Virus record (IMG/VR): IMGVR_UViG_3300027902_000007
From: an uncultured virus (IMG/VR IMGVR_UViG_3300027902_000007)
Taxonomy: Duplodnaviria; Heunggongvirae; Uroviricota; Caudoviricetes
Direction: 5' to 3' (one strand)
DNA length: 64,000 nucleotides
Positions 11,023 through 60,234 of this stretch are shown here, piece after piece; position 1 is the first letter of the stretch; every line of letters begins with the position of its first letter. A model generated the notes under the pieces. The model searched no databases, was not told where the DNA came from, and saw only the letters and a program-made list of their open reading frames with translations. A program made the translations under genes and the position numbers.

Positions 11023-11850
11023 TTACAGCGCCGTCGGTTGATAATGCTTTTTTGTCATCTTTCTTTCAATCTTGTCTTCAGCAGCTTGAATAGCCACATC
11101 TTTATTTGGCGACGTCTCTAAAACCTTTATGCCCCTTGGCGGATAACCGATCCGTCCGTAAACGTTAGCTGCGGCAAAATTGCCGTCTTTATCAGGAAAC
11201 ACAGCAAAATAATGATATTTATTAGCAGTGCCTTCTCTTTTTGTAAGGTATTTTCTGAATACTGGAACGTCAGTAGCAGCGTTAAGAGTCTTTCTTAATA
11301 TGTCTAAGATCTCACGTGACTGAGACCGCTTAGGATCGACAATCATTAGTCCGCTAGTCTCAGATCGCGGTGTGGGCTTTCCAGTTAGTCTGCGTCTTGA
11401 ACCTGGGTGTCTAGTTAAATATCCCCGTTGCCACTCTAGCGGCATTTCGTTCCAGTCACGTGCAATACGAAGAAACTCTCCTTGGATTGCTGCTAAATGT
11501 TTAAACATCGCCGGCCTCCTGATAATGTTTGCTTTATGTTCAACCGTTTTTTCCATTTCAGCTTCAGCTTCCATACCTTTTAACCTTGTATAGTAATCGC
11601 CTATTTCCGCGAGATGATCCATAGCTATTTTGGCAGCCTTCACAATGTCACTCGTGTGCTCAAATTCAACCTTGATACCCATGACCAACTGTCTCGGGTC
11701 AAAATCATGTGGGTATTTGCCGTCTGCTAATCCGCCCTTCATAGGTTGCCACATCTTGTCGAGCAATGCAATAAATTTATCATGCTCTCCATTAGTGTAC
11801 AAGACTCTCAGTCTCTTTTTAAGATCCACGTCATATTCCTCGTTCTTCAC
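11023..11850 (-). CDS. DUF5661-like domain + internal leader motif + WGR-like domain
   Basis: GGLADG..FDPRQLVMGIKVEFEHT..KIAMDHL..DYYTRL (DUF5661-like); C-terminal ANKYHY...VYGRIG...KMTKKHY (WGR-like); in-frame ATG 11508 with AGGAGG. Confidence 0.7.
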   Translation of the reverse strand: MKNEEYDVDLKKRLRVLYTNGEHDKFIALLDKMWQPMKGGLADGKYPHDFDPRQLVMGIKVEFEHTSDIVKAAKIAMDHLAEIGDYYTRLKGMEAEAEMEKTVEHKANIIRRPAMFKHLAAIQGEFLRIARDWNEMPLEWQRGYLTRHPGSRRRLTGKPTPRSETSGLMIVDPKRSQSREILDILRKTLNAATDVPVFRKYLTKREGTANKYHYFAVFPDKDGNFAAANVYGRIGYPPRGIKVLETSPNKDVAIQAAEDKIERKMTKKHYQPTAL

Positions 11851-12115
11851 AGATAGCTTTTAAATCCTCAATGGCCTTAGTGATATAGCCCTTAGCTATG
11901 TCCCTGTCTTTGTCATAATCTTCAATTGCCTTTACAATGTCGACAGGTTTTACCTTATTGTGCTTAACAATGTTAGCAGCTTGCTGCAACGCTGATTTTG
12001 GATGCTGGACGTCTTCAAATGTCTCTAAAATGCCAATCGCATCCCGCAGCGATTTCTTCTTATTCTTCATTGATAGTTTTACAAACTCTTGCTGTAATAA
12101 TGTTGAATAGTTCAT
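11831..12115 (-). CDS. Hypothetical protein with shared N-terminal leader
   Basis: Begins MNYSTLLQQEFVKLS; GGAG RBS. Confidence 0.65.
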   Translation of the reverse strand: MNYSTLLQQEFVKLSMKNKKKSLRDAIGILETFEDVQHPKSALQQAANIVKHNKVKPVDIVKAIEDYDKDRDIAKGYITKAIEDLKAICEERGI

Positions 12116-12241
12116 ATTCGTCTCCCAAATAATTACTTCTTATCAACCCAAGTTAAATTCTACATCATATTAGGTGAATAATACTAACTATGGACAAACG
12201 GCCGTTCAGCAGCCAAAAACTAAATAACGAAAGGACCTCTT

Positions 12242-12712
12242 ATGGGACTTGATGACATGGTAAAGAGTGTAAGCGATAGTGCGACGAAGCTCATCGATGA
12301 TGTTAAAAAAAGAGCAAGCACTATCATCGAATCCGCTGTCAACTTAGCCATTGAAAACGGAAAAAAGCGCTTAGAAGATCTCCGCAAAATACTACAGGAA
12401 GAACATGCGAAATTAGAAGCTAAAAAAGCAGAAGTGGTCAAAGAAATCAAAACGGCGGTTGAGACTGAACAGCATAACTTTTCTGCCTTAACCAAAAAAT
12501 TTGAACAAGAAATAAAAGACGACCTGTTGAACACCAAAAAAGAATTTTTAGCCGACGTGCAAAATGAGCGGTCTGCAATCAGTCACGAAGTAGAATTAAT
12601 AAAGGCTGAATTAAAAATTGAATTGCACAAAGAACTTTTAGACAAACTGGAGGCACGCATCAAGGAAGTCGGACAGTCAAACATCTTTACGCGCCTTTTT
12701 GGAAAAAAATGA
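12242..12712 (+). CDS. Coiled-coil hypothetical protein
   Basis: 156 aa, heptad-like E/K/L-rich helices. Confidence 0.6.
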   Translation: MGLDDMVKSVSDSATKLIDDVKKRASTIIESAVNLAIENGKKRLEDLRKILQEEHAKLEAKKAEVVKEIKTAVETEQHNFSALTKKFEQEIKDDLLNTKKEFLADVQNERSAISHEVELIKAELKIELHKELLDKLEARIKEVGQSNIFTRLFGKK

Positions 12713-13716
12713 ACTTCACTGAGTGGTTTGTTAAAAATAAGCTCGATAACAGTGAGGCGTGGTTTCAACAAAATCTGCTATTGGAAACGATTCTGGGTAG
12801 TCACGCCTACGGTTGCAACCGCGAAGATTCTGATTACGACGTCTACTGCATCGTGATGCCACGACGAGAACATTTATGGCCACAAAAATTTGGTTATATC
12901 CTCAACTTTGACGACATTCCCAGTTTTCGACGCAAAGAATTAAAGGGCGAGAATAGGACGAAAGTCAATGACAAGGAGGTTGAAATAGAATGGATCTCCG
13001 TTGTTGAATTCTTTAACCTTGCCGGTCTGAGTGGCTCACCAAATCTACTAGAAGTCTTATTCACCAAAAGAAACATGGTTACCGTAAGTTCAAAGATAGG
13101 CTGGATGCTACGTGATAAACGGAAGTTATTTCTCTCCTTAAAGACCTTCCATAGCTTCAAACACTACGCGTGTCGTCAGATGCAGAAGATTAGGTCAAAG
13201 GAGCCAGTATCGACAGACAGACGGAAGATTATCGAACAATACGGTTACGACATTAAAATGAGCTATCACGTCTTGCGGTTATTGGACGAGATGCAACAGA
13301 TGCTAATCGATAATGACATCGACCTGATGAGAAACAATTCCGAGTGTAAATTGATGCGCGAGGGTGCCTGGGGTGACCTTAGCAGGTTTGAGCGTGAATT
13401 CCAACGACGAATGGATTACGTAGAAGACTTGTCAAGAAAGACATCACTACCACCGCAGCCAGAATCTGCATCTTTACATAATTTTTTAAACGAACTAATT
13501 GAAGATTATTATGGTAATGAAGATAAAGCGCAACGCAATTTCGAGTACATTTCAACAAAAGATGTAATGGATAAGCTGTCAGAAATTACAGAAGCGCTAA
13601 ACGACTCAAAAGCTCCTAAAATAAATATACTGCCCAGTGATTGCACATGCACTGCAGACCAGTACGGCGGCGTTACAAATCCTAAATGCATAGTTCATGG
13701 AGATAAACGAGGGTAG
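12709..13716 (+). CDS. Pol-beta-superfamily nucleotidyltransferase (YcgL/RlaP-like)
   Basis: GSHAYGCNREDSDYDV (GS...DxD), GSPNLLEVLF, GYDIKMSYHVLRLL. Confidence 0.85.
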   Translation: MNFTEWFVKNKLDNSEAWFQQNLLLETILGSHAYGCNREDSDYDVYCIVMPRREHLWPQKFGYILNFDDIPSFRRKELKGENRTKVNDKEVEIEWISVVEFFNLAGLSGSPNLLEVLFTKRNMVTVSSKIGWMLRDKRKLFLSLKTFHSFKHYACRQMQKIRSKEPVSTDRRKIIEQYGYDIKMSYHVLRLLDEMQQMLIDNDIDLMRNNSECKLMREGAWGDLSRFEREFQRRMDYVEDLSRKTSLPPQPESASLHNFLNELIEDYYGNEDKAQRNFEYISTKDVMDKLSEITEALNDSKAPKINILPSDCTCTADQYGGVTNPKCIVHGDKRG

Positions 13717-14007
13717 TCATTTACTCTTACTCTCGTTATCACTCGACTTAGCCTCAAGATAATCCAATGCAGCCTGCTTGACAAAGAATAGGGCCACGCC
13801 TTCTGTGACCGCCTCTACTCCAAAGCCATAAGGCTTGTCATTTAAGACGTAGTACAATTCCCTAACATCAAGTCCACCTCGTCGAGCAAGTTCTTCAAGC
13901 GTCTGACTGTGATTGGTCTGCGCCTGACGCTCATGCGGCTGAATTAAGCCCCAAGGTATGACGTGCGGACAACCTTCTACAGGTTGTAATACTGGAAATG
14001 TTTTCAT
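13717..14007 (-). CDS. Conserved-looking phage hypothetical protein
   Basis: IPWGLIQPHERQAQTNHSQTLEELARRGGL. Confidence 0.6.
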   Translation of the reverse strand: MKTFPVLQPVEGCPHVIPWGLIQPHERQAQTNHSQTLEELARRGGLDVRELYYVLNDKPYGFGVEAVTEGVALFFVKQAALDYLEAKSSDNESKSK

Positions 14008-14402
14008 TTTAATGGTGACGGCTGTTCAATGGCCTCTTTAAAAAGTCTCTTTAGATCCTTCACGGTTTCTTCAAGCCTCGTCAAAACTTTATTTTGTAGT
14101 TCTTTTGAGTCAATTATTGAACCGAACAAATTTACGGGTGATGATTTGAGTCTTTCCTCTTCAGCCTTCATTTCTGCTATCACTTCACCCTTCCATTTAT
14201 CTACAATAAGAAATGGCAGTTGTTTTAACTGATTTTTCTCATCCTCAGTCTTCACCGAATCTGACAGATGATGATAGATCAGCATAAAATTCACAACAGA
14301 CAGATAAAGATCAAAATGATTTATTAACGTGTCCTTAATGTCCCTGTTTGGCTGCGAAAACAAACTAGCCATTTGCTTTACAAAATCGTTAGACTCCGCC
14401 AT
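14004..14402 (-). CDS. Hypothetical protein
   Basis: 132-aa ORF, GGAGG RBS. Confidence 0.6.
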   Translation of the reverse strand: MAESNDFVKQMASLFSQPNRDIKDTLINHFDLYLSVVNFMLIYHHLSDSVKTEDEKNQLKQLPFLIVDKWKGEVIAEMKAEEERLKSSPVNLFGSIIDSKELQNKVLTRLEETVKDLKRLFKEAIEQPSPLK

Positions 14403-14418
14403 TTTTCCTCCAAAATGA

Positions 14419-14444
14419 TGCGAGCGTTCCTAAGAACGCTCGCA
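14419..14444 (-). terminator. Hairpin, probable intrinsic terminator
   Basis: Perfect 11-bp inverted repeat TGCGAGCGTTC/GAACGCTCGCA just after the 14458 stop. Confidence 0.6.
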
Positions 14445-14457
14445 AATAACGTGCATT

Positions 14458-15588
14458 TTAAGAAGCAGCCACAATTTGCGAAATGTCATACTTACGATAA
14501 CGGATATTTAGTCCTCTTGCAAGTATGAGCCTATTCCACTCAACTTTTTTGCCAGGTAGTACGAACCCGTGTTCCCACTTGGCATTTTCAATCCACGTTG
14601 GCATCTTGTTGCCATCGTCACCGTTAAAGTGAAAAGCATATTCTGTTGCCCTTGTGGCAAATCTAAGTTTGGGAATGATTGTGGACGTGAGCTCACGTGA
14701 GCGATCTTCAACTGCCTTGAGTAGATCAGAGGGAGTAGAACCTTTGAAACCCGGCAGCATCGGACTAATCGATTTTGGCCACTCAAACATGAGCTGTGGA
14801 TAATCAATCTGTGCCTCAAGTGTCGGCACCTTAATCGATTTCTGTTCACCGACAACCGTTTTCTTCGGCCACTCTTTCTTTTCACCGCCAGTACCGCCTA
14901 TTTTGATACCCCTCTTCCTCATGTCAACCGCAGTGTCTTTGAGGAACTTTGCCTCTTCGGTGAGACGATCGATGAGCACTTTTGTGATGAGGTAATGCTG
15001 GCCGTAAAATGAGACCCACCTGTTCGGGTGCACGAAATTCTTGAAAACGACCGAATTACCAGTCCACAGCTTGTTGTCTTTCAGGAAGTCGTTCTCCTTT
15101 GCATCGGGGACAAATTCAATTGTCTTCCAACCATCATACCACGTACCGTCAAGATCTACAATCATAAAATTGCGGAAATTGCCGACGGAATCGGTGGTCA
15201 CGACGTTCGCATCGAGTATACGAACGGAAAATGAAAACGTCTCCTTATTCGAGACGACATTGAGAATCTTCCCGTGACGGTTGTCACCTGAGACAACGTG
15301 CTCACCCTCAGCAATTGTTCTCACACGACGACCCTCATATTTGGGAAGATTAATAACGGCACCTCTTTCTGCTAGGGCAAAAAGAAAGCACGCGAGGTCC
15401 AAGTCGGTGCCGACAAACACTCCGTCATCAGTATAAGCAGCGCCTGGACTACGAGTGAATAGATCGTAACTCCAGTGATTCAGCATCTTGTCAATGACCG
15501 GCTGAATAGCATCTGCCCTACTTAACGTCACCTGCATAAGCGGATTTTCAAGTACGTTGACGAGCGTACCTGCAACTTTTTTAGACAT
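14458..15588 (-). CDS. Hypothetical protein (376 aa)
   Basis: Long ORF, AAGGAGG RBS, no recognised motif. Confidence 0.75.
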   Translation of the reverse strand: MSKKVAGTLVNVLENPLMQVTLSRADAIQPVIDKMLNHWSYDLFTRSPGAAYTDDGVFVGTDLDLACFLFALAERGAVINLPKYEGRRVRTIAEGEHVVSGDNRHGKILNVVSNKETFSFSVRILDANVVTTDSVGNFRNFMIVDLDGTWYDGWKTIEFVPDAKENDFLKDNKLWTGNSVVFKNFVHPNRWVSFYGQHYLITKVLIDRLTEEAKFLKDTAVDMRKRGIKIGGTGGEKKEWPKKTVVGEQKSIKVPTLEAQIDYPQLMFEWPKSISPMLPGFKGSTPSDLLKAVEDRSRELTSTIIPKLRFATRATEYAFHFNGDDGNKMPTWIENAKWEHGFVLPGKKVEWNRLILARGLNIRYRKYDISQIVAAS

Positions 15589-15830
15589 ACTCTGTCCTCC
15601 TTTTGTGTATAGTGTTATTCTATGTTAATTTTGGCATCGACTTTACTTATAAAAAATGTATAATTCGTCTTCCGTTGTCCGTTTAAGAAATTCTGAAGGA
15701 GCACGTAAGCTCCATGATTTTACAACTATACTAATAATGTCATCCTCAGTTTTTCCTCTTTTTGCTAATCCCTCGTCGATTCGTCTATTAAGTTCTTCGC
15801 CTGCAACAAATGAAACAGTAAAATGGTTTA

Positions 15831-16247
15831 TCATAACTCCGCCTTATGTTGAGATTGATTTAGCTCTTTTATAAGAGCATCATCCCTCGTTATCTGCACA
15901 ATGTTTATAGAAATGGGAGCACTGTCTTTATCAACCCACAAGCTATCAAGGTCATTAATGGTGCCCACAAATCCAAATTCGTTCATTATCGTTTCAACAG
16001 AGGGTGGGCTTGGTAGTTTAGTCTTGTCTGGGATTGACACAGATAAATGTCGGCACCAACTGGGCGTCTGATTTTCAAATGAGAACACCACCCGGTAGCC
16101 GTCGGGAATCGTGCAGACGAAGTTTTTATCATCACCGACAACTAGACCCTTTTTTAACATCTCTAAACTTACTGGGTGCAACTTAGCATAATTGACGAGC
16201 TGGCTAATTATGCTTTTTATCTGGTCGTTGATTAAAAGTAATCGCAT
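15831..16247 (-). CDS. Hypothetical protein
   Basis: 138 aa; GYRVVFSFE...CRHLSVS. Confidence 0.6.
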   Translation of the reverse strand: MRLLLINDQIKSIISQLVNYAKLHPVSLEMLKKGLVVGDDKNFVCTIPDGYRVVFSFENQTPSWCRHLSVSIPDKTKLPSPPSVETIMNEFGFVGTINDLDSLWVDKDSAPISINIVQITRDDALIKELNQSQHKAEL

Positions 16248-16408
16248 CTGGTTTTAGAATGAGTTGTTGTTTTTTCTCATAAAAATAGAAATCGTCAGAG
16301 CGGTATGCATCGTCCAACTTCTTTGTCTTTATTCGTCGTCTGAAAAGTCGATGTAGTATCTTTTTTACAGGCGTGATAAAACTCATGATGTTATAATCAT
16401 CATAAAAT

Positions 16409-16729: not shown

Positions 16730-16766
16730 AGAGGTAATAATATTCCGTTTCATTGGCGAAGTTAAC

Positions 16767-16794: not shown

Positions 16795-16817
16795 CACTTA
16801 TAAACACCTACAAATTT

Positions 16818-18440: not shown

Positions 18441-18453
18441 CATTCTACTAAAA

Positions 18454-29420: not shown

Positions 29421-30932
29421 TCAAGTTGCGAGTTTAATGTGCCGCTTTTCTCGAATAACCATTATCTTAATTTGTCCGGGATAATTCATACTTTTTTCAA
29501 TCTCATTTTTTATTTTTTCTGCCATAACCTCAGCATCATCGTCAGATACTTCATCGGGCTCTACCACAATTCTTAACTCTCGACCTGCCAATAATGCGTA
29601 ACAGGACTTTACGCCGTCAAACGACAGTGCGATTTTCTCTAAACTATCCAGTCGTTTTACGTACGCATCAAACGTGTCGTGCCGCACACCCGGTCTGGCA
29701 GACGAAAGTGTATCGGCAGCCCTTACTAACCACGTATAAACCGACGATGGGTTATCATCGTGGTGTTCAGCTATAATTTTGCAAATTACATCTGACTCAC
29801 CGCACTGTTTAGCAAAATCGGCGCCCAACTCAGCGTGCGAACCGCTAACAGCCCTAATGATTGACTTTCCAATATCGTGCAGTAGCCCCGCCCTTGACGC
29901 CAATTTTTTGTCTAATTTCAATTCTGCTGCTATGTCAGCAGCAATTAGCGCTGTCTCAAAACTATGTTCAAGCACATTTTGCGAATAGCTCGTTCGATAT
30001 TTTAATTTGCCTATTGCTTTAATTATGTCAGTGTGCATGTCTGTTATTTGTAAATCTGCCACAATTTGTCGACCAGTATTAAGAATAATGTCATCAATCT
30101 CTCGCTTTGTCGACTCAACAATTTCTTCTATACGCTGCGGATGTATGCGACCGTCACTGATAAGTTTTGTCATTGCCAGCTTAGCAATTTCACGCCTGAC
30201 CGGCTCGTAACAAGACAAGACAATCATTTCAGGCGTGTCATCAACCAAGACAGTCACACCTGTTAGCTCTTCAAAAGTTCTAATATTCCTTCCTTCGCGG
30301 CCGATGATTTTGCCCTTTAATGATTCATCTGGCAAATCAACAGCGCATGTTGCGATTTCGGATACCACGCTTTGCGATTCTTTTTGCACTGCATATGCTA
30401 GTATTTTTGTTGCCTCTATCCGCGCTCTTAACGATGTCTCATTAATAATTTCCTTAATTTTATTTTCAGATTTTAATTTTGCTGTACTTTCCAATTTTTT
30501 ACATAGTAAATTCATTACATCATCTCGCGATAAACCTGACAATTGACCGAGCTGCTGAATTAATTGTTGCTCGCGTTCCTGTACAGACTGCTCTAGTGTT
30601 TTAGCAGTTTGCATACGTTGGTCTATCGATTTTCCCTGCACATTTAGTGCCTCAACCTTGCGAGCAAGGTCAACGGACTGTGTGCGTATATCTAACTCTT
30701 GTTTACGTATTTTATTACGCTGTTGTCTAATGAACTGAATTTCTTTACTTGTTTTACGTTTAAAATCCTGTTCATTTTTCTGTAAATCTTCAAGTTTGCG
30801 ATTAATCTCTTGTTGTCGTTCCGAAAATCCTCGTGAGATAACAACAGCATCGTCGTCTTTTATATCAAACGATTTCTTCAGGAGCGAAATAACGTCAAGA
30901 ATCGACTGTTTTTGTGCATCGTCTATTGTCAT
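29421..30932 (-). CDS. rny: Ribonuclease Y (no N-terminal TM anchor)
   Basis: Coiled coil, KH (KGKIIGREGRNIR), DGRIHPQRIEE, RTSYSQNVLEHS, LLHDIGK, YPGQIK. Confidence 0.95.
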   Translation of the reverse strand: MTIDDAQKQSILDVISLLKKSFDIKDDDAVVISRGFSERQQEINRKLEDLQKNEQDFKRKTSKEIQFIRQQRNKIRKQELDIRTQSVDLARKVEALNVQGKSIDQRMQTAKTLEQSVQEREQQLIQQLGQLSGLSRDDVMNLLCKKLESTAKLKSENKIKEIINETSLRARIEATKILAYAVQKESQSVVSEIATCAVDLPDESLKGKIIGREGRNIRTFEELTGVTVLVDDTPEMIVLSCYEPVRREIAKLAMTKLISDGRIHPQRIEEIVESTKREIDDIILNTGRQIVADLQITDMHTDIIKAIGKLKYRTSYSQNVLEHSFETALIAADIAAELKLDKKLASRAGLLHDIGKSIIRAVSGSHAELGADFAKQCGESDVICKIIAEHHDDNPSSVYTWLVRAADTLSSARPGVRHDTFDAYVKRLDSLEKIALSFDGVKSCYALLAGRELRIVVEPDEVSDDDAEVMAEKIKNEIEKSMNYPGQIKIMVIREKRHIKLAT

Positions 30933-31395: not shown

Positions 31396-32709
31396 TTAAT
31401 TACTGCCATCTTCAAACTTTATGTCTTCATAAGGTTGAAGATCCTCAAGTTTCATTGACCACAAGTCATCACTAAATTTCTGTTCTTCAGGTGTGAGACC
31501 CTCCAAATCTCGAACCTTGAAAAGAAAATCATCATGAGATGTGTCTTTCTCAGCAGCAACTTTACTTATACCTTCAGCATTTGCTCTCATTTTCATACCT
31601 GCCCTCGCGTAGAAGTTTTGGAATATAGTGGGATCAATGTAATGTTTCAGCGCGATTTTTGGCGTATTGCCGAGCCTATCTGCGACAACAACAGCAGCAT
31701 CACTGATGGTCTGCTTAATTTGGTCACGACTCATCTTTGCTGGGTCAATTTTTGATAAATACTCATTGGCCCATTGCGTGCCATGGTGGTGACGGAAATG
31801 GTGAATTGTCACATTCGAACCGAGACGCATCCTTAAATATTCATTCACAAGTCGAGGAGCGATACGAATTTCCTCATTATGTTTCTTCCATGTGAACAGT
31901 GCGTCATCGGGCTGTTTATTCTCAAGAAATTGTTGTAGATTGTTTTTAATAGTGTCTGATACCTCAAATGTGTGTTTTTGTGCGATCCTCTTTTTACCAG
32001 AATAAGACACTACTACTTTATGATCGGTCATCGTTATGTGTTTTTTCTGCAAATTGTGTAGTCCACGGACATCGTCTTTCTCACTCTTTTTATTGCCCAC
32101 CCGCATCGCAGCTTGGTCGACCAAAGCTATTGCCGTCGCGTACACCCTATCTCTTTCATTACTGCTAGTCAAATCCGCATGATATTTCTTTCTAATCGTC
32201 GGTAGTAATTCCCCAAATCGTTGAACATTCGCAAACTTGATCTTATTATGCCGTTTAATGTAATCTTCAGTATAGAAGTGCACAGCGTGACCCGTGCGAG
32301 GATGTGTCTGCTTAGCGTAATACGCGTTGTCTGAGTCCGGTTGCCAATCCGGATTAATATTAATCTTAACGCCCGGGAACATGCCTCGCGTGGTGTTAAG
32401 CTTCTTACCAGTGTGGGTGAAGAAATTAGGATGCGACTCAGGGGTCATGTGCTTACGTTCCTGCAATTTCTTCTGTCTCTCCAAGCGACGTTCTTCCCGT
32501 CTCTTCCTCCGCTCCGTCCTCCTCAGCGATTTTTCCTGTCTCCGTTTAAATCTTGCATTCAGGCGTCTTTGTTCTTCAAGGGGTAAGGACTTGAATTTAA
32601 CTCTATTTCGTGTAGTAGGATGGCGAAACATCTTACCAAGCCACCACGGCTTTTTAACTTCTTTTGCAATTTTAATAAATTCTACACATATACGAGCAAT
32701 ATGTTTCAT
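31396..32709 (-). CDS. DNA topoisomerase IB (bacterial/poxvirus-like) with N-terminal leader
   Basis: MRVGN, YSGKK, HHFR, LGNTPKIALKHYIDP (catalytic Tyr); ATG 32709 with GGAGGA RBS. Confidence 0.88.
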   Translation of the reverse strand: MKHIARICVEFIKIAKEVKKPWWLGKMFRHPTTRNRVKFKSLPLEEQRRLNARFKRRQEKSLRRTERRKRREERRLERQKKLQERKHMTPESHPNFFTHTGKKLNTTRGMFPGVKININPDWQPDSDNAYYAKQTHPRTGHAVHFYTEDYIKRHNKIKFANVQRFGELLPTIRKKYHADLTSSNERDRVYATAIALVDQAAMRVGNKKSEKDDVRGLHNLQKKHITMTDHKVVVSYSGKKRIAQKHTFEVSDTIKNNLQQFLENKQPDDALFTWKKHNEEIRIAPRLVNEYLRMRLGSNVTIHHFRHHHGTQWANEYLSKIDPAKMSRDQIKQTISDAAVVVADRLGNTPKIALKHYIDPTIFQNFYARAGMKMRANAEGISKVAAEKDTSHDDFLFKVRDLEGLTPEEQKFSDDLWSMKLEDLQPYEDIKFEDGSN

Positions 32710-32722
32710 TTTTCCTCCAAAT

Positions 32723-33277
32723 TTACCATTGTTCGCCATGTTCGTCATTTTCCCGCATCCACGTCAAATTTATTGCCCTGGCTATTGTCTTCAAATCCTT
32801 ATATGTGCTCCCGACATCCCCAAGTGGAATGTCTGACTTATACCCCTGCACTATAGCGTCCCACTTGTCCCACTTGCTTTTTCCGCTCTTTTCTTTTCTT
32901 ATGAATGTCATGTCAAAACCTTTTTTATTCGTCACGTTAATTTTATCTTCATCTATGTCTGACAGATCAACCTTATACCCATCTTTCTTAAATTGATCTG
33001 CAATATCAGTCAACTCTTTAATGACTTTCTGACGCTCAGGCGTCTGATCGTAAAGTTCTTTCTTTTTTGCTTCAAGTTGCTTCCGCTGTTCATCTAAACT
33101 ACTAATTTGTTTATCAACATCCTTCACTGTCTTGTAGCGCTTTTCATGTTTTGCTGTAAGGCGACGTTTAGATTTAGGGTGACGGTTTAAATAATGTACC
33201 TGCTCCTCCATAGACAAATCATCCCATTCACGAGCAGTTTTTAAAAATTCAGCTTGTATTGTCGCCAAATGTTTCAT
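32723..33277 (-). CDS. Hypothetical protein with shared leader and W..Q..YL..HP.S module
   Basis: Begins MKHLATIQAEFLKTAREWDDLSMEEQVHYLNRHPKSKRRLTAK. Confidence 0.75.
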   Translation of the reverse strand: MKHLATIQAEFLKTAREWDDLSMEEQVHYLNRHPKSKRRLTAKHEKRYKTVKDVDKQISSLDEQRKQLEAKKKELYDQTPERQKVIKELTDIADQFKKDGYKVDLSDIDEDKINVTNKKGFDMTFIRKEKSGKSKWDKWDAIVQGYKSDIPLGDVGSTYKDLKTIARAINLTWMRENDEHGEQW

Positions 33278-33321: not shown

Positions 33322-34830
33322 TCAAACAATTTTCAACTTCTCCAGAGCTTCAATTGCTTGCTGCTTTGTCATGTCAGGATTATCTAATAACAAATTCTGA
33401 AGATGCTCTTTGGCTTTGCCAACAGCCGGACCGGGTTGTAATTTCAACACATCCATAATTTCATGGCCTGTAATGGGCAAGACCATCTTCTCAACAGGTT
33501 TTTGGCTCTGTAATTCTTTAATTCTCTGTTCTAAATTTGTGATTGACACCATACTGGCATAATCTGGATGATGACTAGCCCTGTCGGCTTTTATAAGATT
33601 TAAAACATTATCTAGCTCAAGCCCCATGTCTCTAATAAATCGACGTACAGTGGCATCTGACCACTGGCTTGAACCATGCACTCGCATGTGTGAGGCAATA
33701 ATTTTTGTCACCTTGTCAATCACATCATTTGAGTACTTTAAGCGCTTCATCACTTCTTCTGCGATGTCGGCGGATGCTTTTTCATGCTCATAAAAATGAG
33801 GCTGACTATCATCACCAACAGTCATCTTTTGGGGCTTACCTATATCGTGCAGCAATGCAGCCAACCTATCTACAGGAACTTTGTTCACCTCCATGTCATT
33901 AGACCTGTCTAGCACGTCCATGGTGTGATTCCAGGCATCAGTATAGTGATATTTACCTTGTTTGACCCCAACTAGTCGTTCTAACTCTGGCAGAAACTGG
34001 TGCAGTACTCCTGTTTTTAGCATTACATTTAATGCTCTACTTGGCTTTTTTGTCGCTAGCATCTTGTTCAATTCTTCCTGTATGCGTTCTCTAGAAATGT
34101 GATTGAGTTCTTCTGCATTATTCTTTACTGCAGGTAAGACGTCATCTGCAAATTTAAAATCATACTTGACAGCGAAACGAACAGAACGCAAAATACGCAG
34201 TGGGTCATCTTGAAAAGTCACATTCGGATCCAATGGCGTGCGAATGATGCCCTCTCGCAAATCATCCATGCCTTTACCTGTGAGATCTAACGTCTTGCCC
34301 GTGGTTAAGTCTAACAAAAGCGTATTAATTGTAAAATCTCTACGTTCTACATCCTCCTGCAGTGTCCCAAATGAAGTGGACGGCTTGCGACTGCCCCTTA
34401 CGTATTCTTCGTTTCTTGTCTGAACAAATTCAACTTCAACACCTGATGGTAGTTGTATCTTGGCCGTTCCAAATGTTGGAAAAATAACAGGCTCATGAAT
34501 TTTAAGTTTTTTACTTATATAATTAGCCAAATCAATGCCGCCTGACGGTGCCTCAACTGTGATGTCAATGTCTTTTGATAGTCTGCCCAATATTTTATCA
34601 CGCACAAAACCGCCTGCTAGAAATGCCTTCCCACGAAACGGCGACTTTTTAATGATTGAACTCAATTGTCTGACAGCTTTGTCCTCTTTATTTATTTTGG
34701 ATTTCGCCGTCAACCTACGCTTCGATTTTGGATGCTCTTTAAGATAAAACAACTGCGCGTCACGGGACAGTTCGTCCCAAGTTAATGCCATTTTCTCGAA
34801 TTCCTTCTGTATTTTTGCAAAATGTCTCAT
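33322..34830 (-). CDS. cca: Class II CCA-adding tRNA nucleotidyltransferase with HD domain and N-terminal leader
   Basis: AGGFVRD..DIDI, DVERRDFTIN, DDPLRILR, ISRERIQEE, LHDIGKP. Confidence 0.9.
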   Translation of the reverse strand: MRHFAKIQKEFEKMALTWDELSRDAQLFYLKEHPKSKRRLTAKSKINKEDKAVRQLSSIIKKSPFRGKAFLAGGFVRDKILGRLSKDIDITVEAPSGGIDLANYISKKLKIHEPVIFPTFGTAKIQLPSGVEVEFVQTRNEEYVRGSRKPSTSFGTLQEDVERRDFTINTLLLDLTTGKTLDLTGKGMDDLREGIIRTPLDPNVTFQDDPLRILRSVRFAVKYDFKFADDVLPAVKNNAEELNHISRERIQEELNKMLATKKPSRALNVMLKTGVLHQFLPELERLVGVKQGKYHYTDAWNHTMDVLDRSNDMEVNKVPVDRLAALLHDIGKPQKMTVGDDSQPHFYEHEKASADIAEEVMKRLKYSNDVIDKVTKIIASHMRVHGSSQWSDATVRRFIRDMGLELDNVLNLIKADRASHHPDYASMVSITNLEQRIKELQSQKPVEKMVLPITGHEIMDVLKLQPGPAVGKAKEHLQNLLLDNPDMTKQQAIEALEKLKIV

Positions 34831-51798: not shown

Positions 51799-52581
51799 TT
51801 AGTTGTTCATCATGAATTTAAATTTATCTATATGTGTGTTGTCCCAAATTTCCTGATCGATTAATTTCACACCCTCAAATTTGCACGCCATACTAAGACT
51901 TTGAAAATACGCATAGCCTATTGCAGTCATTGACGGGTCATCTGCCGGCAGACAATCTTCAACACCAAGCATCATAACGCCCGACAAATCTTTTATAGCA
52001 AAATACTCACCCGCCTCAAGAAAATCGGTAACAATTAATTTTGAATCGGTGTTGTGTATGTGTTTAGTAATATCGTTTAAATTCTGTCCATTGGACGACA
52101 AAATTAATTTAAAATCTTTAACATCAACTGGCAGTGATAGTTCATCATCACAATCTTGATAATAAGCTTTCAATAATTTTAAAAATAAATTCAATTCTTG
52201 CCGGTTTATTTCTTTAAAAATTATCACATCAAGATTGTCTATGGCAGCCGCTCCAATTGACCGCAAAATCGACATACCTATAGTTGCGTGCATGGATGTT
52301 TCTATTGTCGGTATCACTAACCTGTCAGTATTAATTGCGCAATCTGCTTCAATTTCATCATTAATAAAATAAAATTTATCATCACGTTGTTTGCTTAACT
52401 GTGGCAGTTCACCTTCCTGCAATTTTTTTATTGATAAAAATTGTCTAGGTATCGACTTTTGATCTAATTGTTTGCGCACACTATTCTTTAACACATCTGC
52501 AAATTTTTTCTTACCTTCGGCACTCTTATGTAATTCAATGATTAGCTGCTTTTGCTCATCAGTTAGCTGACGCAGATTCAT
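51799..52581 (-). CDS. Possible degenerate major-capsid-protein paralogue
   Basis: Start ATG 52581 with GGAG; motif order recalls a jumbo-phage HK97-fold capsid family (see findings). Confidence 0.5.
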   Translation of the reverse strand: MNLRQLTDEQKQLIIELHKSAEGKKKFADVLKNSVRKQLDQKSIPRQFLSIKKLQEGELPQLSKQRDDKFYFINDEIEADCAINTDRLVIPTIETSMHATIGMSILRSIGAAAIDNLDVIIFKEINRQELNLFLKLLKAYYQDCDDELSLPVDVKDFKLILSSNGQNLNDITKHIHNTDSKLIVTDFLEAGEYFAIKDLSGVMMLGVEDCLPADDPSMTAIGYAYFQSLSMACKFEGVKLIDQEIWDNTHIDKFKFMMNN

Positions 52582-53827
52582 GAACTTTCTCCAATATTTC
52601 ACGTCCGACGGCCATCGCTTTTTCTTCAATGCCCTTAAATCTATCGGGATGTCTCTCAATGTGCTTTTTTAATGCCTCAATCGGTAAATCTGCTGTGGTT
52701 ATCTTTCCGGCATCGTCGTTAATGGTTTCGTCAGCGATAATATTTATGTCAACACCTAACGAATGCCATGTATTTTCTCTAAGCCAGTTCTCTAAGTCAG
52801 TAAATTTCAGTGTCGGCAAGTACGTCTGTAGCACGTCAACCTTCACCCTGACAATCGCCTGTCTTAAATCCCATTTTTTAACTTTTTCAAAAAATGTGCT
52901 AAGTTTTTGTTTACAGTCATCTTCATTCAATTTAAGTCGGAACGTCCGAAATTCTCTATCTCCGATAGGAACAAATTCATCGTTACCATCGCAAAAATAA
53001 TAAAAACCCTTCTGCTCTTTTTCTTCGGCAAAATCAACCCTACCAATAGAACCTACGTGTCTTGATACACTATTAAATTCCTGCTGTTGATGTATGTGTC
53101 CTAAATAGATCTTTGTCCATTTGCCTGCATCAAACGACGGCAATGTTATTTTATTCTCATTCTCGTCGACCGACATGTCAAGGTCAAAACTATTGCCAAT
53201 AACAGATTTGTCAGTCCCAAAGTGACCGAAAAATAATTTATATTCAGCTTTGCTCTTACAAGTTAATTTATTAAACTCATCAATCTTATTCTTTTGAAAT
53301 GTTAAAAAGTCTTGAACAGTCAAAAGCTTTTCTGCCCCTCTATTGACAAACGGCAGTATGTACAATTCGGTATTGCACGTGGGCTTTAATACACTATGTA
53401 ACTTTCCACCGTCATCTTTCTCCACATCCACTAAATCATCATTTAGTTTTAGCACAACAGGTGAAGAATAAACTTCTAAACCTGCAACCAACTCGCACAA
53501 TTCTTGCATTTCAGACAATGCGTGTGCGCCATCAGCGCTGGTCGTCATGTCGTGATTGCCTGTCATCAATATGACACGAATTTTTTTCTTAATTAACCTC
53601 TTAATTCTCGGGACAAATTGTTTTCTAATCTTAGAGCTTGGATGCTTCTGCCGATATATATCGCCGACTATAACAAATGCGTCTGCTCGTCTTTCAATAG
53701 CGAAATCTACACTTTGATCTAAATTTTTAAGGAAATCAAGTAATCTTGTGTTCAAACCTGTAGCACTATCCGTCCTACCATAAGAATAGTCGCCAATATG
53801 CGGATCAGAGATAATGACAATTTTCAT
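52559..53827 (-). CDS. sbcD: SbcD/Mre11-like metallophosphoesterase nuclease
   Basis: SDPHIG, VGDIY, GNHD, FGH, LGHIH, GSIGRVDFAE. Confidence 0.9.
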   Translation of the reverse strand: MKIVIISDPHIGDYSYGRTDSATGLNTRLLDFLKNLDQSVDFAIERRADAFVIVGDIYRQKHPSSKIRKQFVPRIKRLIKKKIRVILMTGNHDMTTSADGAHALSEMQELCELVAGLEVYSSPVVLKLNDDLVDVEKDDGGKLHSVLKPTCNTELYILPFVNRGAEKLLTVQDFLTFQKNKIDEFNKLTCKSKAEYKLFFGHFGTDKSVIGNSFDLDMSVDENENKITLPSFDAGKWTKIYLGHIHQQQEFNSVSRHVGSIGRVDFAEEKEQKGFYYFCDGNDEFVPIGDREFRTFRLKLNEDDCKQKLSTFFEKVKKWDLRQAIVRVKVDVLQTYLPTLKFTDLENWLRENTWHSLGVDINIIADETINDDAGKITTADLPIEALKKHIERHPDRFKGIEEKAMAVGREILEKVHESASAN

Positions 53828-54889: not shown

Positions 54890-54891
54890 TT

Positions 54892-57465
54892 TTAACCGCA
54901 CCTTGACTCACCGCAGTCTAAACACTTGTAACAGTTCGCCTGTATAATAATATTTTCACTTTTGCACTCAGGACATTTCAAACCAGTAATCTTTGTGCCG
55001 TCTTTTATCGTCAACGCGATAAATCGCCTAACTGCCGTTAATAGTGTCGAGACATTATCGCCCTCAATATTAAACAGCGCCGATAAGATCTCTTCCCGTG
55101 CAACATTGTGCCGTAAACAAAGTGAAATCATTCGGCCTAATCTATTGTATGAATAATCTATTTTGGCTTTATCAATGCATTTCTGTATAATTTCCGTACC
55201 GATGCCTTTTTCCAGGGCTAACTGTGCCAATTTTCTTGACGCCTTATTACAAGCCTTCACCCGACCAGCTTCTTTTGAATTGCTATATATCCATAAACAA
55301 ATAGGAAATTTCATTTCTGGATCGTCCGGCAAATAACTAAAATGCAGATAGAATTTCATCCCCTCACGCTTGATGATTCGCGTCGGCCCATTTAAAAACA
55401 CTTCGGGCAGTTTAATGTCCTTCTTAACGATCTCTTTACTTTCACTCGCGGCCTTTAACACAGACTCCATACAGCCTTCGCGGTAAGTCGTGAGACCATT
55501 CAAGCCCATTTTCCAAGCGTCAAAATATAACTGTTTAAAATCTTCAAAATGATAATTGTTAGGAATATTACAAGTTTTTGAAACTGACTGATTACAATAA
55601 TATTGGACGACAGCTTGGACATTGAGGTGATCTTGCGCAGTTAAATTTTTCGTAGTGATTAAGTGTCGTGAGTGATCTTTCTTCGGAAAATTATTTAATA
55701 GCCATTGGTACCCATAATCTCTCACTATATTGATCTCGCATAGTCCTCTATTATGAGGCTCATAATAATATAGTTTACCATTATAATTGCCGCGCCAATA
55801 TTCAAAATCTTTTTCTTTATGATATGTTAAAATGTTTTTTACGTTATCACCGTTCAAACCGTCGGGCCACTGACATATAACAACACGTTCATATTCAAGT
55901 GAAAAAACAGGCTCGATTGAATTTGAGACATTGTTGCAGATAACTGAAGAATTGCCCAGCGGCGGATTAGTGGTCGTCTTTGCATTACGAACACCATATT
56001 GTTTAACGAGATCTTTCGTCTCGGGCCATAATCTGTCAGATTTAAAATACTCAGTGTTTTGAAATTTTTCAGCATTGTACAGTTCAAAGGCACCCTTTTC
56101 TTTTGCCAATAACGCTGACGCCTGCCACACGTAATTTTCTTTTAATTCAACTAATTTTTTAGTAAAATCGATTGCGGTTTTTGAATTGTATGGCATTCCT
56201 AACATCATTATTGCTGAGCCCAATCCGTTTATTCCCATGCCGAACTGCCTTAACTTGTTCACAACCTGCTGATATGACGGCAGTGGCAATTTCGATAAAT
56301 CATTTACGTTATCTAGCATTCTTGCAAAAACTTGAATGTCGTTAATATACATGCCAAAATCAAATTCTGGCACGCCACTTTCATTAATAAAAACATATTG
56401 TGTGACATTTATTGATCCAAGTAAACATACAGATGTAATTGTAGATAGTCCAGGTACTTCTCCGCAGGGATTTGTCGTATCGCACTGTCCAAGATAAGAT
56501 AGTGGATTGTTTTTGTGCATATTGTCATAAAATAGAACTCCTGGCTCAGCTCTATTATAAGTCGACGTCATCATTAAATCATATAGATCACGAGCCTTAA
56601 TGATCTTATATACTTTATTATTAAAATGCAGATTGTAAAAATCATCATTCAGCACTGCGTTCATAAAAGCATCGTCAACGAGTACTGAAGTATTAAATTT
56701 TGTGAGCACACCTGAAACCTGTTTTACTCTTACAAATTCTTCAATGTCAGGATGCCACACAGGTAAGCATCCCATCATTGCACCTTTTCGAGTCATAGAT
56801 TTAACTGCAATCTTTAGGTCGCAAATCTGTTGGTCATCTAGATAATTTTTTAATTTGTCAGTGTAACCGTCATCTGTGCCTTTAACCATACACTCAGACA
56901 CAGTATCCCATAATTTCATATAAGACATGACACCAGGATGACGGATGCCTGTGCCTTTAATTATCGCGCCCCGAGGCCTAAGGAAACCAAAATTGATTCC
57001 GTAACCACCTTCTGAAGCTAAAGTTTTCGCCTGTTCTAAAATCGTGAGAAAGATGTTTGATAGATCGTCAGGGCTCTCGTCTGTATTTAATTGCACGTCA
57101 TAACTAATTGAATTGTCAGCAGATTTTCTCTTATACTGTATTTTGGCGCCAGAAACCGGACCATTAATAAAGCAGTTCATTAACGTTGCATTCTTAAAAT
57201 CTGTGCCGATGTTAGCTGTTATTCGACCGCCTAGCGTCATTTTAAGACCGATAGCCTCTTTATTAGGATAACCCCTGTCATCAACGTCAATTTCACTATC
57301 AAATTTTAATAAAGTTTGTAGGAACGGCTTGTACCACCTAGTAGGATCTTTTTCAACTGAAGCTAGGGCTTTTGCGCTTCGCATAAAAGTTTCAATTTCT
57401 GACTCTGACTTGTACCTATATTTCTTCTTCCAATTTTCGATCGACATTTGAGCTGTAAAAATCAT
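54892..57465 (-). CDS. nrdJ: Class II (B12-dependent) ribonucleotide reductase
   Basis: NCF, RKGAMM, HPDIEEF, TNPCGEVP, CLLGSINV, C-terminal CPEC..CLDC; no nrdB in window. Confidence 0.85.
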   Translation of the reverse strand: MIFTAQMSIENWKKKYRYKSESEIETFMRSAKALASVEKDPTRWYKPFLQTLLKFDSEIDVDDRGYPNKEAIGLKMTLGGRITANIGTDFKNATLMNCFINGPVSGAKIQYKRKSADNSISYDVQLNTDESPDDLSNIFLTILEQAKTLASEGGYGINFGFLRPRGAIIKGTGIRHPGVMSYMKLWDTVSECMVKGTDDGYTDKLKNYLDDQQICDLKIAVKSMTRKGAMMGCLPVWHPDIEEFVRVKQVSGVLTKFNTSVLVDDAFMNAVLNDDFYNLHFNNKVYKIIKARDLYDLMMTSTYNRAEPGVLFYDNMHKNNPLSYLGQCDTTNPCGEVPGLSTITSVCLLGSINVTQYVFINESGVPEFDFGMYINDIQVFARMLDNVNDLSKLPLPSYQQVVNKLRQFGMGINGLGSAIMMLGMPYNSKTAIDFTKKLVELKENYVWQASALLAKEKGAFELYNAEKFQNTEYFKSDRLWPETKDLVKQYGVRNAKTTTNPPLGNSSVICNNVSNSIEPVFSLEYERVVICQWPDGLNGDNVKNILTYHKEKDFEYWRGNYNGKLYYYEPHNRGLCEINIVRDYGYQWLLNNFPKKDHSRHLITTKNLTAQDHLNVQAVVQYYCNQSVSKTCNIPNNYHFEDFKQLYFDAWKMGLNGLTTYREGCMESVLKAASESKEIVKKDIKLPEVFLNGPTRIIKREGMKFYLHFSYLPDDPEMKFPICLWIYSNSKEAGRVKACNKASRKLAQLALEKGIGTEIIQKCIDKAKIDYSYNRLGRMISLCLRHNVAREEILSALFNIEGDNVSTLLTAVRRFIALTIKDGTKITGLKCPECKSENIIIQANCYKCLDCGESRCG

Positions 57466-57580
57466 GTCTTCTCCAATAATGTTAATTTTTTTATCTATAT
57501 ACCTTCATCAAATTTTCGATAGTGTCGACCTTGTTTTGACAATTTGTCTTCCTGACATCTATTTTTAGCCGACTATTAAA

Positions 57581-57961
57581 TTATTTTAACGGTTGACACA
57601 TTCGTAACGCTAGCAGCAAGTCAATTTGCTCAAGCAAGTATTGATATCTACGACAAATATTTTCCCAAGACTCACCACGCTGCAATTGTGACTGTTCATA
57701 CCTTTTATTTATACGTCTTTTCAACCATTGCAGTGAGTCTGAACCATCGTGCATTTGTAGTCTGCTCTTATCAAGAATATTTAAAAAAACTAGTATTTCC
57801 TCTTGTTTAATTTTTGTTATTTGCTTTCCTTTTGTGCCCAAGACCTTGTTCAGCAACCAATTTGTGTTTATCTCGTTGCCAGAATAAGTGACCTTTACAT
57901 CATCTGTTATTATCGGTAGAGTACCATCTTCATGAACCGCGAATTTTACTTTTTTGCTCAT
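57581..57961 (-). CDS. Hypothetical protein
   Basis: 126-aa ORF. Confidence 0.55.
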   Translation of the reverse strand: MSKKVKFAVHEDGTLPIITDDVKVTYSGNEINTNWLLNKVLGTKGKQITKIKQEEILVFLNILDKSRLQMHDGSDSLQWLKRRINKRYEQSQLQRGESWENICRRYQYLLEQIDLLLALRMCQPLK

Positions 57962-58053
57962 GTTGTTTTTTTACCTATTTTCCTCTTCGGATTAACATAA
58001 AAAATGCGAGAAAACTCGCATTGATCTTCGTCATTAACAAGCGTCTAAACACA

Positions 58054-58605
58054 CTAGAAATTTAATAATTTTTTTGTGTTTTTGAATATCTGTACTAATT
58101 GAGGATCCATCTTAAATCTTTCGGTGTTTATCTCAATGCTTCGCCCAAAATCACCGTCAGCATGTCGTTCTGTGGCAGCCTTCCAATCCACAAACATCTC
58201 TATTAAATCTATCAATGTCATTCCAGATATGCCGTCTTTGTAATGCTCTGGATGATGTGAATTATTTGAATAATGATGTTTAAGCGCGGGCTTTAGCTGG
58301 CTAAGAAATGCCTTATATTCAAGACTTCCGTACGTGCAATTTTTTAATTTATGAGATATTTTATCAAAAAATTTCTTTTCAAAAGGCTCTAATTTACTTT
58401 TATCATGATTCACTCCCCGTAAAGCAATGACTTGATTAATCAAATTTAAAAGACACTGCGAAATAATAGCCTGAATAATCAGATCTAAAAGACACCTCAC
58501 CCTGTCAATGTGTTTCTGCGTGTCTGCCCTACTGTCATTCATGGCCTGTTTACTCGCTTCATTAATAAACTCGGTTTGAATTGTGGCAAAGCATTTGCGT
58601 TTCAT
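58054..58605 (-). CDS. DUF5662-like HD-type protein with shared N-terminal leader
   Basis: HDKSKL..E, HHY.NNSHHPEH..GISGMTLIDLIEM..DW; begins MKRKCFATIQTEFINEA. Confidence 0.75.
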   Translation of the reverse strand: MKRKCFATIQTEFINEASKQAMNDSRADTQKHIDRVRCLLDLIIQAIISQCLLNLINQVIALRGVNHDKSKLEPFEKKFFDKISHKLKNCTYGSLEYKAFLSQLKPALKHHYSNNSHHPEHYKDGISGMTLIDLIEMFVDWKAATERHADGDFGRSIEINTERFKMDPQLVQIFKNTKKLLNF

Positions 58606-58609
58606 TTTC

Positions 58610-59329
58610 TTATCCGTGCAATTTTTGAAACGCTATAGCGACACCGGCGGCGTCCGCAATATCCTCATTTATCGATGATTCCGTGTATATTTCCATGCTT
58701 ATGTCGTCAAAAATATTCGTCATCTCTTTTTTCTTTGTCTTCGCGAATTTTTTAAGATCAAGTTTTGCATCATTAATCTGTGTTGATAGTTTTCCTATCA
58801 AAGCTTTATCATTAGCTTTTTTTGCCTTCTTAAGCTGATGTTGCAGATCGTGCAACTCATCTTTTGACAAACCTTCTTTAAAATTAACTTTTGCGTCGTT
58901 AATCCTTTGTCTATAGGCTTTAATTTTTTCCAATGACAACAACTTATATTTTTCACATATTGCCACTTGTATTTCACATTTTTTTGACGCACCGGTGCAA
59001 CCGTCCATCAATTTCTTCCATTTTGACGGCTCAAACATTTCAGGTTCACGTTGTAAATAGCGATAAGCCTCAATCATTGCGACGCCGTTAAATCTAGCCA
59101 ATATTTTGACGACACTGACACTTTTAACCTGAACAACGTCCTCGATTGCAATCTCGCAAGGCTGCTGTCTATCAATAATTTTCTTTAGCTCAATGTGAAA
59201 TAGGAAAAGCTTCTGAGCAGTTGTCATTTTGCCTGTCGGATTTACTTTGCCGTAATCTAACAGCTTATCGCCTTCAATTACAGCCCAACCAGTACTTTTA
59301 CTTGAAATATCAACGCCCATTATTTTCAT
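58610..59329 (-). CDS. ruvC: RuvC-like Holliday junction resolvase with coiled-coil insertion
   Basis: IMGVDISSKSTGWAV, IAIED, PSKWKK, EDIADAAGVA; ATG 59329 with GGAGG. Confidence 0.8.
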   Translation of the reverse strand: MKIMGVDISSKSTGWAVIEGDKLLDYGKVNPTGKMTTAQKLFLFHIELKKIIDRQQPCEIAIEDVVQVKSVSVVKILARFNGVAMIEAYRYLQREPEMFEPSKWKKLMDGCTGASKKCEIQVAICEKYKLLSLEKIKAYRQRINDAKVNFKEGLSKDELHDLQHQLKKAKKANDKALIGKLSTQINDAKLDLKKFAKTKKKEMTNIFDDISMEIYTESSINEDIADAAGVAIAFQKLHG

Positions 59330-59487
59330 AAATCCTCCGAGTGTTATCAATTAAAATACTTCTCTCATTGGTATATTATTTGTGAGAATCTAATTAAAAA
59401 TTTATGTTTTACTTCAACAAAAAAATTGATTATAATATTTCCTTTATTAGTCGCCCTCTTTAAACACCACAAATAGGAGCAACCACG

Positions 59488-60234
59488 ATGAAACATCTTT
59501 CTACACTTCAGGCTGAATTTGTCAAAGAGGCAAGAAAATGGAGTGAGCGGACAATTGAAGAACAGAGAGAGTATCTGCACAAACACCCAAAATCAAAACG
59601 TACATTATCAGCCAAGCCCAGACAATTTGATTTTGACGACTGGGTTATAAATAGAAGTTTCATGAACCTGCAAACACAAGAGCGTGTCCCATTTGAAAAA
59701 CTGCCTAAAACTCAACAGGACGCAATCAAAAAACAGTTTGAATCAGAAAAGACTGAATATGAGACGACGCCAGCCGAACCGGTAGTAAAAGAAAAGAAAC
59801 ACAAACGTAGAAAATACATGGTCAATGGTGACAAAATCAGAGCCGAGAGTCCAAAAGATGCGCTTGTTAAATATTTAATGGTGCACGAACAATATACCGA
59901 AGACGGTGCCAAAAAAGAAATAGACCAACGGTGGGATGACCGAGATAAAATAATCTTAGACAGCAACCAAAACGAAACCGGTTGGACTCTTGGTAATTGG
60001 GAGGTCAAACAAATAGTCAAGCCGAAAAAACCGAAAAAGTTGACAGAGCGTAGAGTAAAGAGAATGGGTAGAAGAATTAGAAGAGATTTAAAGAGTGATA
60101 ATAAATATACTGACGAAGCGATATACGATGTTGCCAAAGACTTCTTAGACTCACATTCTGAATTAAAGGCATTTTTTAAATCACAAGGTGTCGAAGAAAA
60201 AAATATGGCAACAACGTTTGCCGATTATATATAA
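59488..60234 (+). CDS. Hypothetical protein carrying the leader plus both accessory modules
   Basis: Begins MKHLSTLQAEFVKEARKWSERTIEEQREYLHKHPKSKRTLSAK; AGGAG RBS. Confidence 0.75.
   Translation: MKHLSTLQAEFVKEARKWSERTIEEQREYLHKHPKSKRTLSAKPRQFDFDDWVINRSFMNLQTQERVPFEKLPKTQQDAIKKQFESEKTEYETTPAEPVVKEKKHKRRKYMVNGDKIRAESPKDALVKYLMVHEQYTEDGAKKEIDQRWDDRDKIILDSNQNETGWTLGNWEVKQIVKPKKPKKLTERRVKRMGRRIRRDLKSDNKYTDEAIYDVAKDFLDSHSELKAFFKSQGVEEKNMATTFADYI

Follow-up and report, generated by a model that had tools for sequence, protein, structure and literature searches.

In this study, we analysed a 64,000-nucleotide stretch (hereafter the window) of an uncultured tailed virus (IMG/VR record IMGVR_UViG_3300027902_000007; Caudoviricetes), which lies within a 136,551-base virus contig (G000) that is 60% complete. 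Several of its proteins share a short leader ending in K/R-x-A, and in four of them the leader is followed by a conserved segment with the pattern W-x7-Q-x2-YL-x2-HP-x-S-(K/R)R-x-L-(T/S)-x-K. We found that this segment, referred to here as the module, is a portable mobile cassette that is conserved at the protein level and occurs at N-terminal, internal, tandem, and C-terminal positions. As to its function, our interpretation, held with a confidence just below even, is that the module stays on its cargo after leader removal and would anchor the cargo to a repetitive head-protein surface until ejection. The copies in the window are located in the following open reading frames (ORFs; lengths in amino acids, aa), together with their leaders.

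11377..11460 (-), module copy 1, internal in ORF 11023-11850, which has the order DUF5661, leader, module, WGR
11461..11508 (-), internal leader before copy 1, with an R-x-A end
33149..33232 (-), module copy 2, residues 16-43 of the 184-aa ORF 32723-33277, which has no family match
33233..33277 (-), leader of copy 2, a predicted helix with a K-x-A end
34702..34785 (-), module copy 3, preceding a CCA-adding tRNA nucleotidyltransferase with an HD domain, ORF 33322-34830
34786..34830 (-), leader of copy 3, with a K-x-A end
59488..59532 (+), leader of copy 4, with a K-x-A end
59533..59616 (+), module copy 4, in the 248-aa ORF 59488-60234, which has no family match

The peptides of the original prediction are exact translations of these four copies, and each copy directly follows K/R-x-A, as had been claimed. 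Translated in all six frames, the window gave 4 matches to the strict pattern above. The loose core W-x7-Q-x2-YL-x2-HP also had 4 matches, against 1.6e-4 expected from residue composition. The proposed position behind an N-terminal leader was seen in three of the ORFs, but ORF 11023-11850 carries both elements internally, after DUF5661. A 24-position profile (A3, built from 30 rows) detected 8 module copies on the contig, four of them beyond the window at 34.8, 36.1, 43.5, and 43.7 kb. DNA identity among the 8 copies was 42-71%, and where the residue was identical the third codon positions agreed in 136 of 377 cases. This low agreement indicates selection on the protein, and the codon divergence rules out a recent DNA repeat or mobile element as the origin of the copies.

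The spread of the module was determined by profile search. The core profile matched 461 clusters at 50% identity (E <=0.001, 1.84 billion representatives). The best 150 of the 461 clusters, combined with the proteins from a query with leader and module, gave 231 distinct proteins with 266 copies, and 214 of these copies lay within the first 45 residues, the remainder being internal or tandem. The search for fused cargo domains that the original prediction had proposed yielded 222 clusterable tails in 105 families, 71 of which were singletons. Few tails are named by Pfam; those named include ADP-ribosyltransferase (P0040, P0091, P0132), WGR, FtsK, ferritin-like, and TMEM65-like domains. Large polyprotein carriers contained LPD1, InPase, ART-PolyVal, RelA/SpoT, 2H, and zeta-toxin domains, and in the large phage polyproteins P0129, P0132, P0151, P0162, and P0183 the module stood among such disparate domains. 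Four related polyproteins carried 2-4 copies each, three of them with polyvalent-type Pfam domains and one with a zeta-toxin kinase.

Four related viral contigs had 24, 10 (one marginal), 11, and 4 profile matches. The contig with 24 matches (G001) includes one protein with the module at its C-terminus. Another G001 carrier, L016:10359-11630 (-), lies directly upstream of terminase-portal-protease and by eye resembles P0218, which has a sub-threshold match to sigma-70 region 4 and is named a sigma factor in its source. Judged from these sequence features, this carrier is likely a sigma factor and a candidate for packaging. Two proteins, P0065 and P0078, are labelled as belonging to a Nitrosarchaeum metagenome-assembled genome; their 33-kb contig is presumably a mis-binned phage contig. 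The claim that the module is an independent cassette was borne out by tandem, internal, and C-terminal copies without a leader and by one orthologous gene that occurs with and without the module.

Module copies were also detected in cultured jumbo myoviruses. Searches by tblastn gave weak matches in Yoloswag and fHe-Yen9-02, and further matches in pEa_SNUABM_5, NCTB, BcepSauron, BcepSaruman, BCSR5, five Rhizobium phages, and Xanthomonas phages; candidate rows also came from Caulobacter phage Sansa. The profile matched 5 of 5 records picked from the tblastn matches and 1 of 5 further records, PhiXhv-12; it had no match in Tunturi_5, LR745208, Catera, Arash, Y3, or Machias. The hit in Staphylococcus phage Machias was antisense to a terminase gene and was rejected as chance, and that in LR745208 was rejected as it has no open frame. 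In Yoloswag gp144 (L002:5962-6966) and its fHe-Yen9-02 ortholog (L003:5962-7005), the module is encoded upstream of the annotated start, in an open frame that extends the gene. Its position suggests a corrected gene start in both phages, likely an upstream GTG (270 nt in Yoloswag, 225 nt in fHe-Yen9-02) overlapping a glycosyltransferase gene. The Y3 ortholog, gp145, has no module. In Yoloswag, fHe-Yen9-02, and NCTB, the distance between carrier and head protease is two or three genes, and in the first two phages the carrier precedes the head maturation protease. BcepSauron gp75, which has three module copies, and a 126-aa carrier of PhiXhv-12 each directly follow the tail tube gene; PhiXhv-12 also has a topoisomerase with a C-terminal module. 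In NCTB, a second, degenerate copy occurs in a gene outside the annotated structural blocks. Thus, in cultured jumbo myoviruses the module is found mostly in head or tail gene blocks.

The leader is more widely distributed than the module. On G000, the leader pattern had 16 matches, 8 with and 8 without the module, on unrelated proteins including an aminopeptidase, topoisomerase IB, the CCA enzyme, and a DUF5662 protein. In the window, five other leader-bearing proteins were said to lack the module, and we found the same five, with leaders at 6404+, 8809-, 12115-, 32709-, and 58605-. Four of them are listed below with a further window protein that is rich in K-x-A; the fifth is topoisomerase IB, described later.

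6404..7897 (+), leader-only M17 leucyl aminopeptidase, an enzyme that may be packaged
8501..8809 (-), leader-only 102-aa ORF, no family match
11831..12115 (-), leader-only 94-aa ORF
58054..58605 (-), leader-only DUF5662 protein
40292..42178 (-), 628-aa protein with 21 K-x-A against 6.1 expected, ortholog of a 649-aa protein of G001

The 416-kb relative G001 shares 54 of the 151 G000 ORFs with a mean identity of 52% (compared over its first 400 kb, with ORFs cut at stretch edges). It encodes terminase, portal, head maturation protease (phrog_18299), and major capsid, and the acidic 608-aa product of a gene located between those for protease and capsid is, by position, likely the scaffold. Among 284 G001 ORFs, the five most K-x-A-enriched were the 649-aa protein (24 observed, 7.1 expected), the scaffold (25, 11.4), the protease (10, 3.7), an unrelated 204-aa ORF, and the portal (11, 4.7), with shuffle p values of 0.002-0.006 that are uncorrected for 284 tests. 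The 628-aa window protein is likely a head-internal substrate of the protease, judging from its own K-x-A content. Tunturi_5 and Arash share the protease family, and their head-region proteins are also K-x-A rich; in Arash these genes carry structural annotation. The Arash virion is reported to contain 116 proteins by liquid chromatography-mass spectrometry, and cleavage is never mentioned in the accessible part of that text (PMC10585845). In T4, the prohead protease is described as degrading the core and trimming internal proteins (PMC9958956, in part). The K-x-A enrichment of three G001 head proteins (protease, portal, and likely scaffold) points to the prohead protease as the enzyme that would cut at K-x-A, and leader-clade proteins are probably cut after this motif.

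K/R-x-A/S ended exactly two residues before the Trp in 212 of 266 copies, and 30 copies had no K/R-x-A/S within 14 residues upstream. That the module would form the new N-terminus after cleavage, as had been proposed, is strongly suggested for the leader clade by this spacing and by the enrichment in head proteins, but does not apply universally. Outside the clade, Ala was found at -3 in 17 of 39 copies by filter, and in 13 of 33 after six missed leader-clade rows were dropped by hand; a further case, the first BcepSauron copy, was overlooked by the pattern. Ten of the 13 sit among the 12 copies of the four related polyproteins, where the spacer L-L-A-x-L-G-x-x-A differs from the leader and recurs also without the module. 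This repeated spacer, which delimits P0129, P0151, P0162, and P0183, is likely a lineage-specific processing signal. These results suggest that the module is coupled to a likely cut site in two lineages and not generally.

A 56-aa ORF, L001:10857-11027 (-), keeps the leader and the first Trp and has lost the rest of the module, and is possibly decayed or recombined. By eye, an AdoMet decarboxylase, L001:9176-9604 (-), has a leader-like start, and a CYTH-like protein, L015:7623-8108 (-), bears the leader; both may be packaged. At 11831-11850 (-), the 94-aa ORF with the leader overlaps with the ORF that follows, which is read in a different frame. Fusion of these ORFs (11831-12115 and 11023-11850) by a frameshift was considered, and it was unsupported by the homolog P0126 (E 0.066). 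The head proteins of Yoloswag and fHe-Yen9-02 seem, by eye, rich in S-x-S rather than K-x-A.

The structure of the module was predicted with AlphaFold. With the leader attached, the model consisted of a leader helix (residues 2-16), a turn, and a single helix (23-32). The module alone (33 residues, 42 alignment rows) had a mean predicted local distance difference test score (pLDDT) of 88, with 24 of 33 residues at >=90, and showed a helix at 8-17 followed by a confident non-helical His-Pro loop. Thus, the module is predicted to be a self-folding mini-domain of 24-28 residues, in which a turn at the Trp precedes a single helix and an ordered loop. Over the 266 copies, W (95%), Q (99%), Y (99%), H (97%), and P (96%) were near-invariant, as were L and S/T, and the core was neutral (net charge -0.1). 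Over 24 residues, the mean net charge was +3.9 in 226 leader-clade copies, owing to a Lys/Arg tail, and +1.2 in the 40 other copies, 38% of which were at zero or below. The basic helix-hairpin of the original prediction was not recovered, since only a single helix was modelled, the invariant residues form a neutral core, and a basic tail, typical of the leader clade only, does not amount to a conserved basic surface. A neutral aromatic core with variable charge would be more in keeping with a surface that binds protein than with one that binds DNA, and the conserved residues may also serve folding alone.

Based on these data, the head-anchor interpretation can be set out in steps. The module is a mobile cassette under protein-level conservation and is predicted to fold as described above. 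The leader would be a prohead import tag, similar to the capsid targeting sequence (CTS) of T4, that is cut after Ala. Carriers would then be packaged, ejected, and active early in tRNA repair, ADP-ribosylation, topoisomerase activity, and probably as a sigma factor. In the least certain step, the W/Q/Y/L/H/P/S core would bind a head protein, at the inner wall of the capsid, the core, or the portal/tail conduit, and tandem copies would add avidity; the basic tail of the leader clade may add affinity for packaged DNA. When the module was modelled as a complex with two G001 major capsid proteins, the score was 0.00, which is no answer and weighs neither way.

Several observations weigh against this interpretation. 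The presence of carriers in the virion, their cleavage, and the head partner have candidate status. The module appears dispensable, as leader-only genes make up about half of the leader-bearing genes of G000 (8 of 16) and the module is unmatched in Y3, Tunturi_5, Arash, and Catera. The carriers of the window are dispersed among non-structural genes. The head operon, including the head maturation protease, is absent from the incomplete G000 contig, and the protease link is therefore taken from a relative. The query with leader and module, which returned 120 proteins, biases the sample toward leader-bearing proteins. Of the 21 copies that belong neither to the leader clade nor to the polyvalent lineage, only 3 had Ala at -3; this rarity, together with two C-terminal copies, indicates that N-terminal exposure is not required. 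The fixed spacing between leader and module may be mere inheritance from one duplicated unit.

An alternative is that the module is a nucleic-acid tether, which binds packaged DNA so that the cargo is retained and exits with the genome or is held on it after entry. We regard this as unlikely. The charge of the leader clade favours it, and many identified cargos (CCA enzyme, WGR, FtsK, topoisomerase IB, and the likely sigma factor) act on nucleic acids. However, the core is neutral and the charge of non-clade copies ranges from -5 to +8; some of them being acidic, DNA binding is not the conserved function. The spacing Trp-x2-Leu-Ser-x3-Gln-x2-Tyr is reminiscent of HMG-box helix 3, but none of the 30 A3 members matched an HMG family at E <=10. 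The likeness to an HMG box or a villin headpiece was rejected as unsupported and is probably a generic helix cap.

A second alternative, which has a low probability in our estimate, is a host-side docking tag: the cargo would be packaged passively through its leader and would then dock on RNA polymerase, the ribosome, or a membrane complex. Among the cargos are ADP-ribosyltransferases, an enzyme of tRNA repair, and the likely sigma factor, and hydrophobic segments were found in 5 of 24 non-clade carriers against 2 of 207 in the clade, and also in Yoloswag and RHph_N28_1. However, a single host target common to all carriers is unlikely, given that the core is the same in phages infecting Erwinia, Yersinia, Burkholderia, Xanthomonas, and Rhizobium and is attached to 105 unrelated tail families, and the module was seen only in phages linked by one head protease or gene-block type. 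Similarly improbable is a role as prime-side exosite or folding cap, aiding the cut or protecting the new end, or as a hitch-hiker duplicated jointly with the leader: the spacing is fixed at two residues in the 212 copies, a second lineage shows coupling with another spacer in 10 of 12 copies, and internal copies of polyproteins are usually preceded by K-x-A, but leader-only proteins are equally common, C-terminal and tandem copies occur without any site, and the K-x-A sites of scaffold, portal, and protease are in proteins without a module match.

Family and fold searches gave no counterpart of the module. The four window peptides had no match in Pfam or PHROGs, and the 30 A3 members gave stray sub-threshold Pfam rows only at E <=10, with no LPD family among the LPD models that Pfam contains. 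No match was found in PDB sequences or the ESM Atlas. Foldseek against viral structures and PDB returned nothing at E 0.001 with these very small models; the top two non-significant rows were from Achromobacter phage Motura and a 576-aa BcepSaruman protein. The best VIA-align Z values, likewise from very small models, were 3.4 (50 residues) and 2.2 (33 residues). A GTDB scan with a single 50-residue query, which reaches close relatives only, gave 329 pattern matches and 0 confirmed. A known domain common in cellular proteins, which would speak against the original prediction, appeared neither in the Pfam scans nor in this close-relative scan. In the literature, neither an account of the module nor a virion proteome of any phage carrying it was found; a motif cannot be searched for in text, and this absence is weak evidence. 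The module is undescribed in the accessible text of PMC5512222, PMC7824862, and bioRxiv 10.64898/2026.10.21.760668, and the supplementary alignments of PMC5512222 could contain it. According to the bioRxiv text, the composition of the virion was left undetermined in that study.

Two further short modules were observed. The second is present in 7 distinct copies, behind the leader or the first module (topoisomerase IB and others; L023, L025, L029), and occurs twice in the window.

32545..32634 (-), second short module behind the topoisomerase IB leader, ORF 31396-32748, without the first module
59653..59742 (+), second short module behind module copy 4, H/N-P/L-x-T-x3-V-x-F-x2-LP-x3-Q

A circular permutation of the first module was considered as its origin and rejected (hhalign probability 3.9%, only the helix-start motif aligning), and natural tandem copies yielded no match. 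A third post-leader module, F-P-x3-A-L-x2-Y-L-x2-H-P, at L024:885-1235 (-), has the Y-L-x2-H-P end in common with the first.

Other genes of the window include a ribosomal protein L7/L12 C-terminal domain (9845-10204, -) adjoining an RRM protein (9508-9804, -), and a WGR-PARP_reg-PARP protein (19252-20706, -), which is separate from the module-tagged WGR at 11023-11850. RNA repair or turnover is represented by an RNase Y homolog (29421-30932, -), an RlaP nucleotidyltransferase (12709-13716, +), and the CCA-adding enzyme (33322-34830, -). A divergent major capsid paralog (phrog_2522, E 7e-6) lies outside any head operon at 51799-52659 (-).

Even in T4, it is still an open question how a large phage chooses dozens of internal proteins, keeps them in place, and ejects them, and the mechanisms that localise them are called mysterious in the part consulted (PMC9958956). 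A short tag, predicted to fold by itself and found on more than 100 cargo types, offers one peptide for a partner search, with RHph_N28_1 as a culturable phage whose host is harmless, and is usable as a marker for candidate injected early effectors in uncultured megaphages. If cargo is anchored in the head as proposed, a bolder and rather doubtful extension is a two-part address code, in which a removable import leader is combined with a retained 24-residue anchor that would queue ejection. By grafting of the cassette onto new sequences, these phages would then have acquired a rapidly changing set of injected proteins, as many as 24 in one genome, among them a packaged sigma factor and an enzyme of tRNA repair.

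The T4 protease gp21 cuts after Glu, whereas the cut here would fall after Ala, and up to 24 carriers occur per genome here, unlike in T4. As in T4, where the CTS of IPII and IPIII is removed by gp21 and where IPI and Alt are injected, a short N-terminal leader is present on unrelated proteins, the leader motif is common to core and head proteins, and the cargo includes ADP-ribosyltransferases; in contrast to the module retained here, no domain behind the CTS is described in the part of that source consulted (PMC9958956). For polyvalent proteins, packaging and processing have been inferred (Iyer et al. 2017, PMC5512222, in part). The module resembles their domains in being repeated 2-4 times in polyproteins that contain LPD1, InPase, ART-PolyVal, RelA/SpoT, and 2H domains. 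Unlike LPD1-40, it matches no LPD model, most carriers are small with a single cargo, and processing would be through the prohead protease and not MPTase. We know of no shared retained mini-domain in the ejection and inner-body proteins of SPN3US/phiKZ-like phages, whose propeptides are cleaved. In these giants, many head proteins are processed by the prohead protease and ejected, according to the parts consulted (PMC5694885, PMC10052503). They belong to a different phage group from the module carriers. The 2-cysteine adaptor domain (PF08793) of large eukaryotic DNA viruses is likewise tiny, portable, often tandem, and found on unrelated enzymes. Unlike PF08793, the module has no Pfam sequence match and no conserved cysteines, and the likeness is an analogy only. 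Taken together, the sequence comparisons suggest that the module is a real and widespread phage mini-domain, unmatched in the family libraries searched, whose putative function would make it a variant of a known cargo system.

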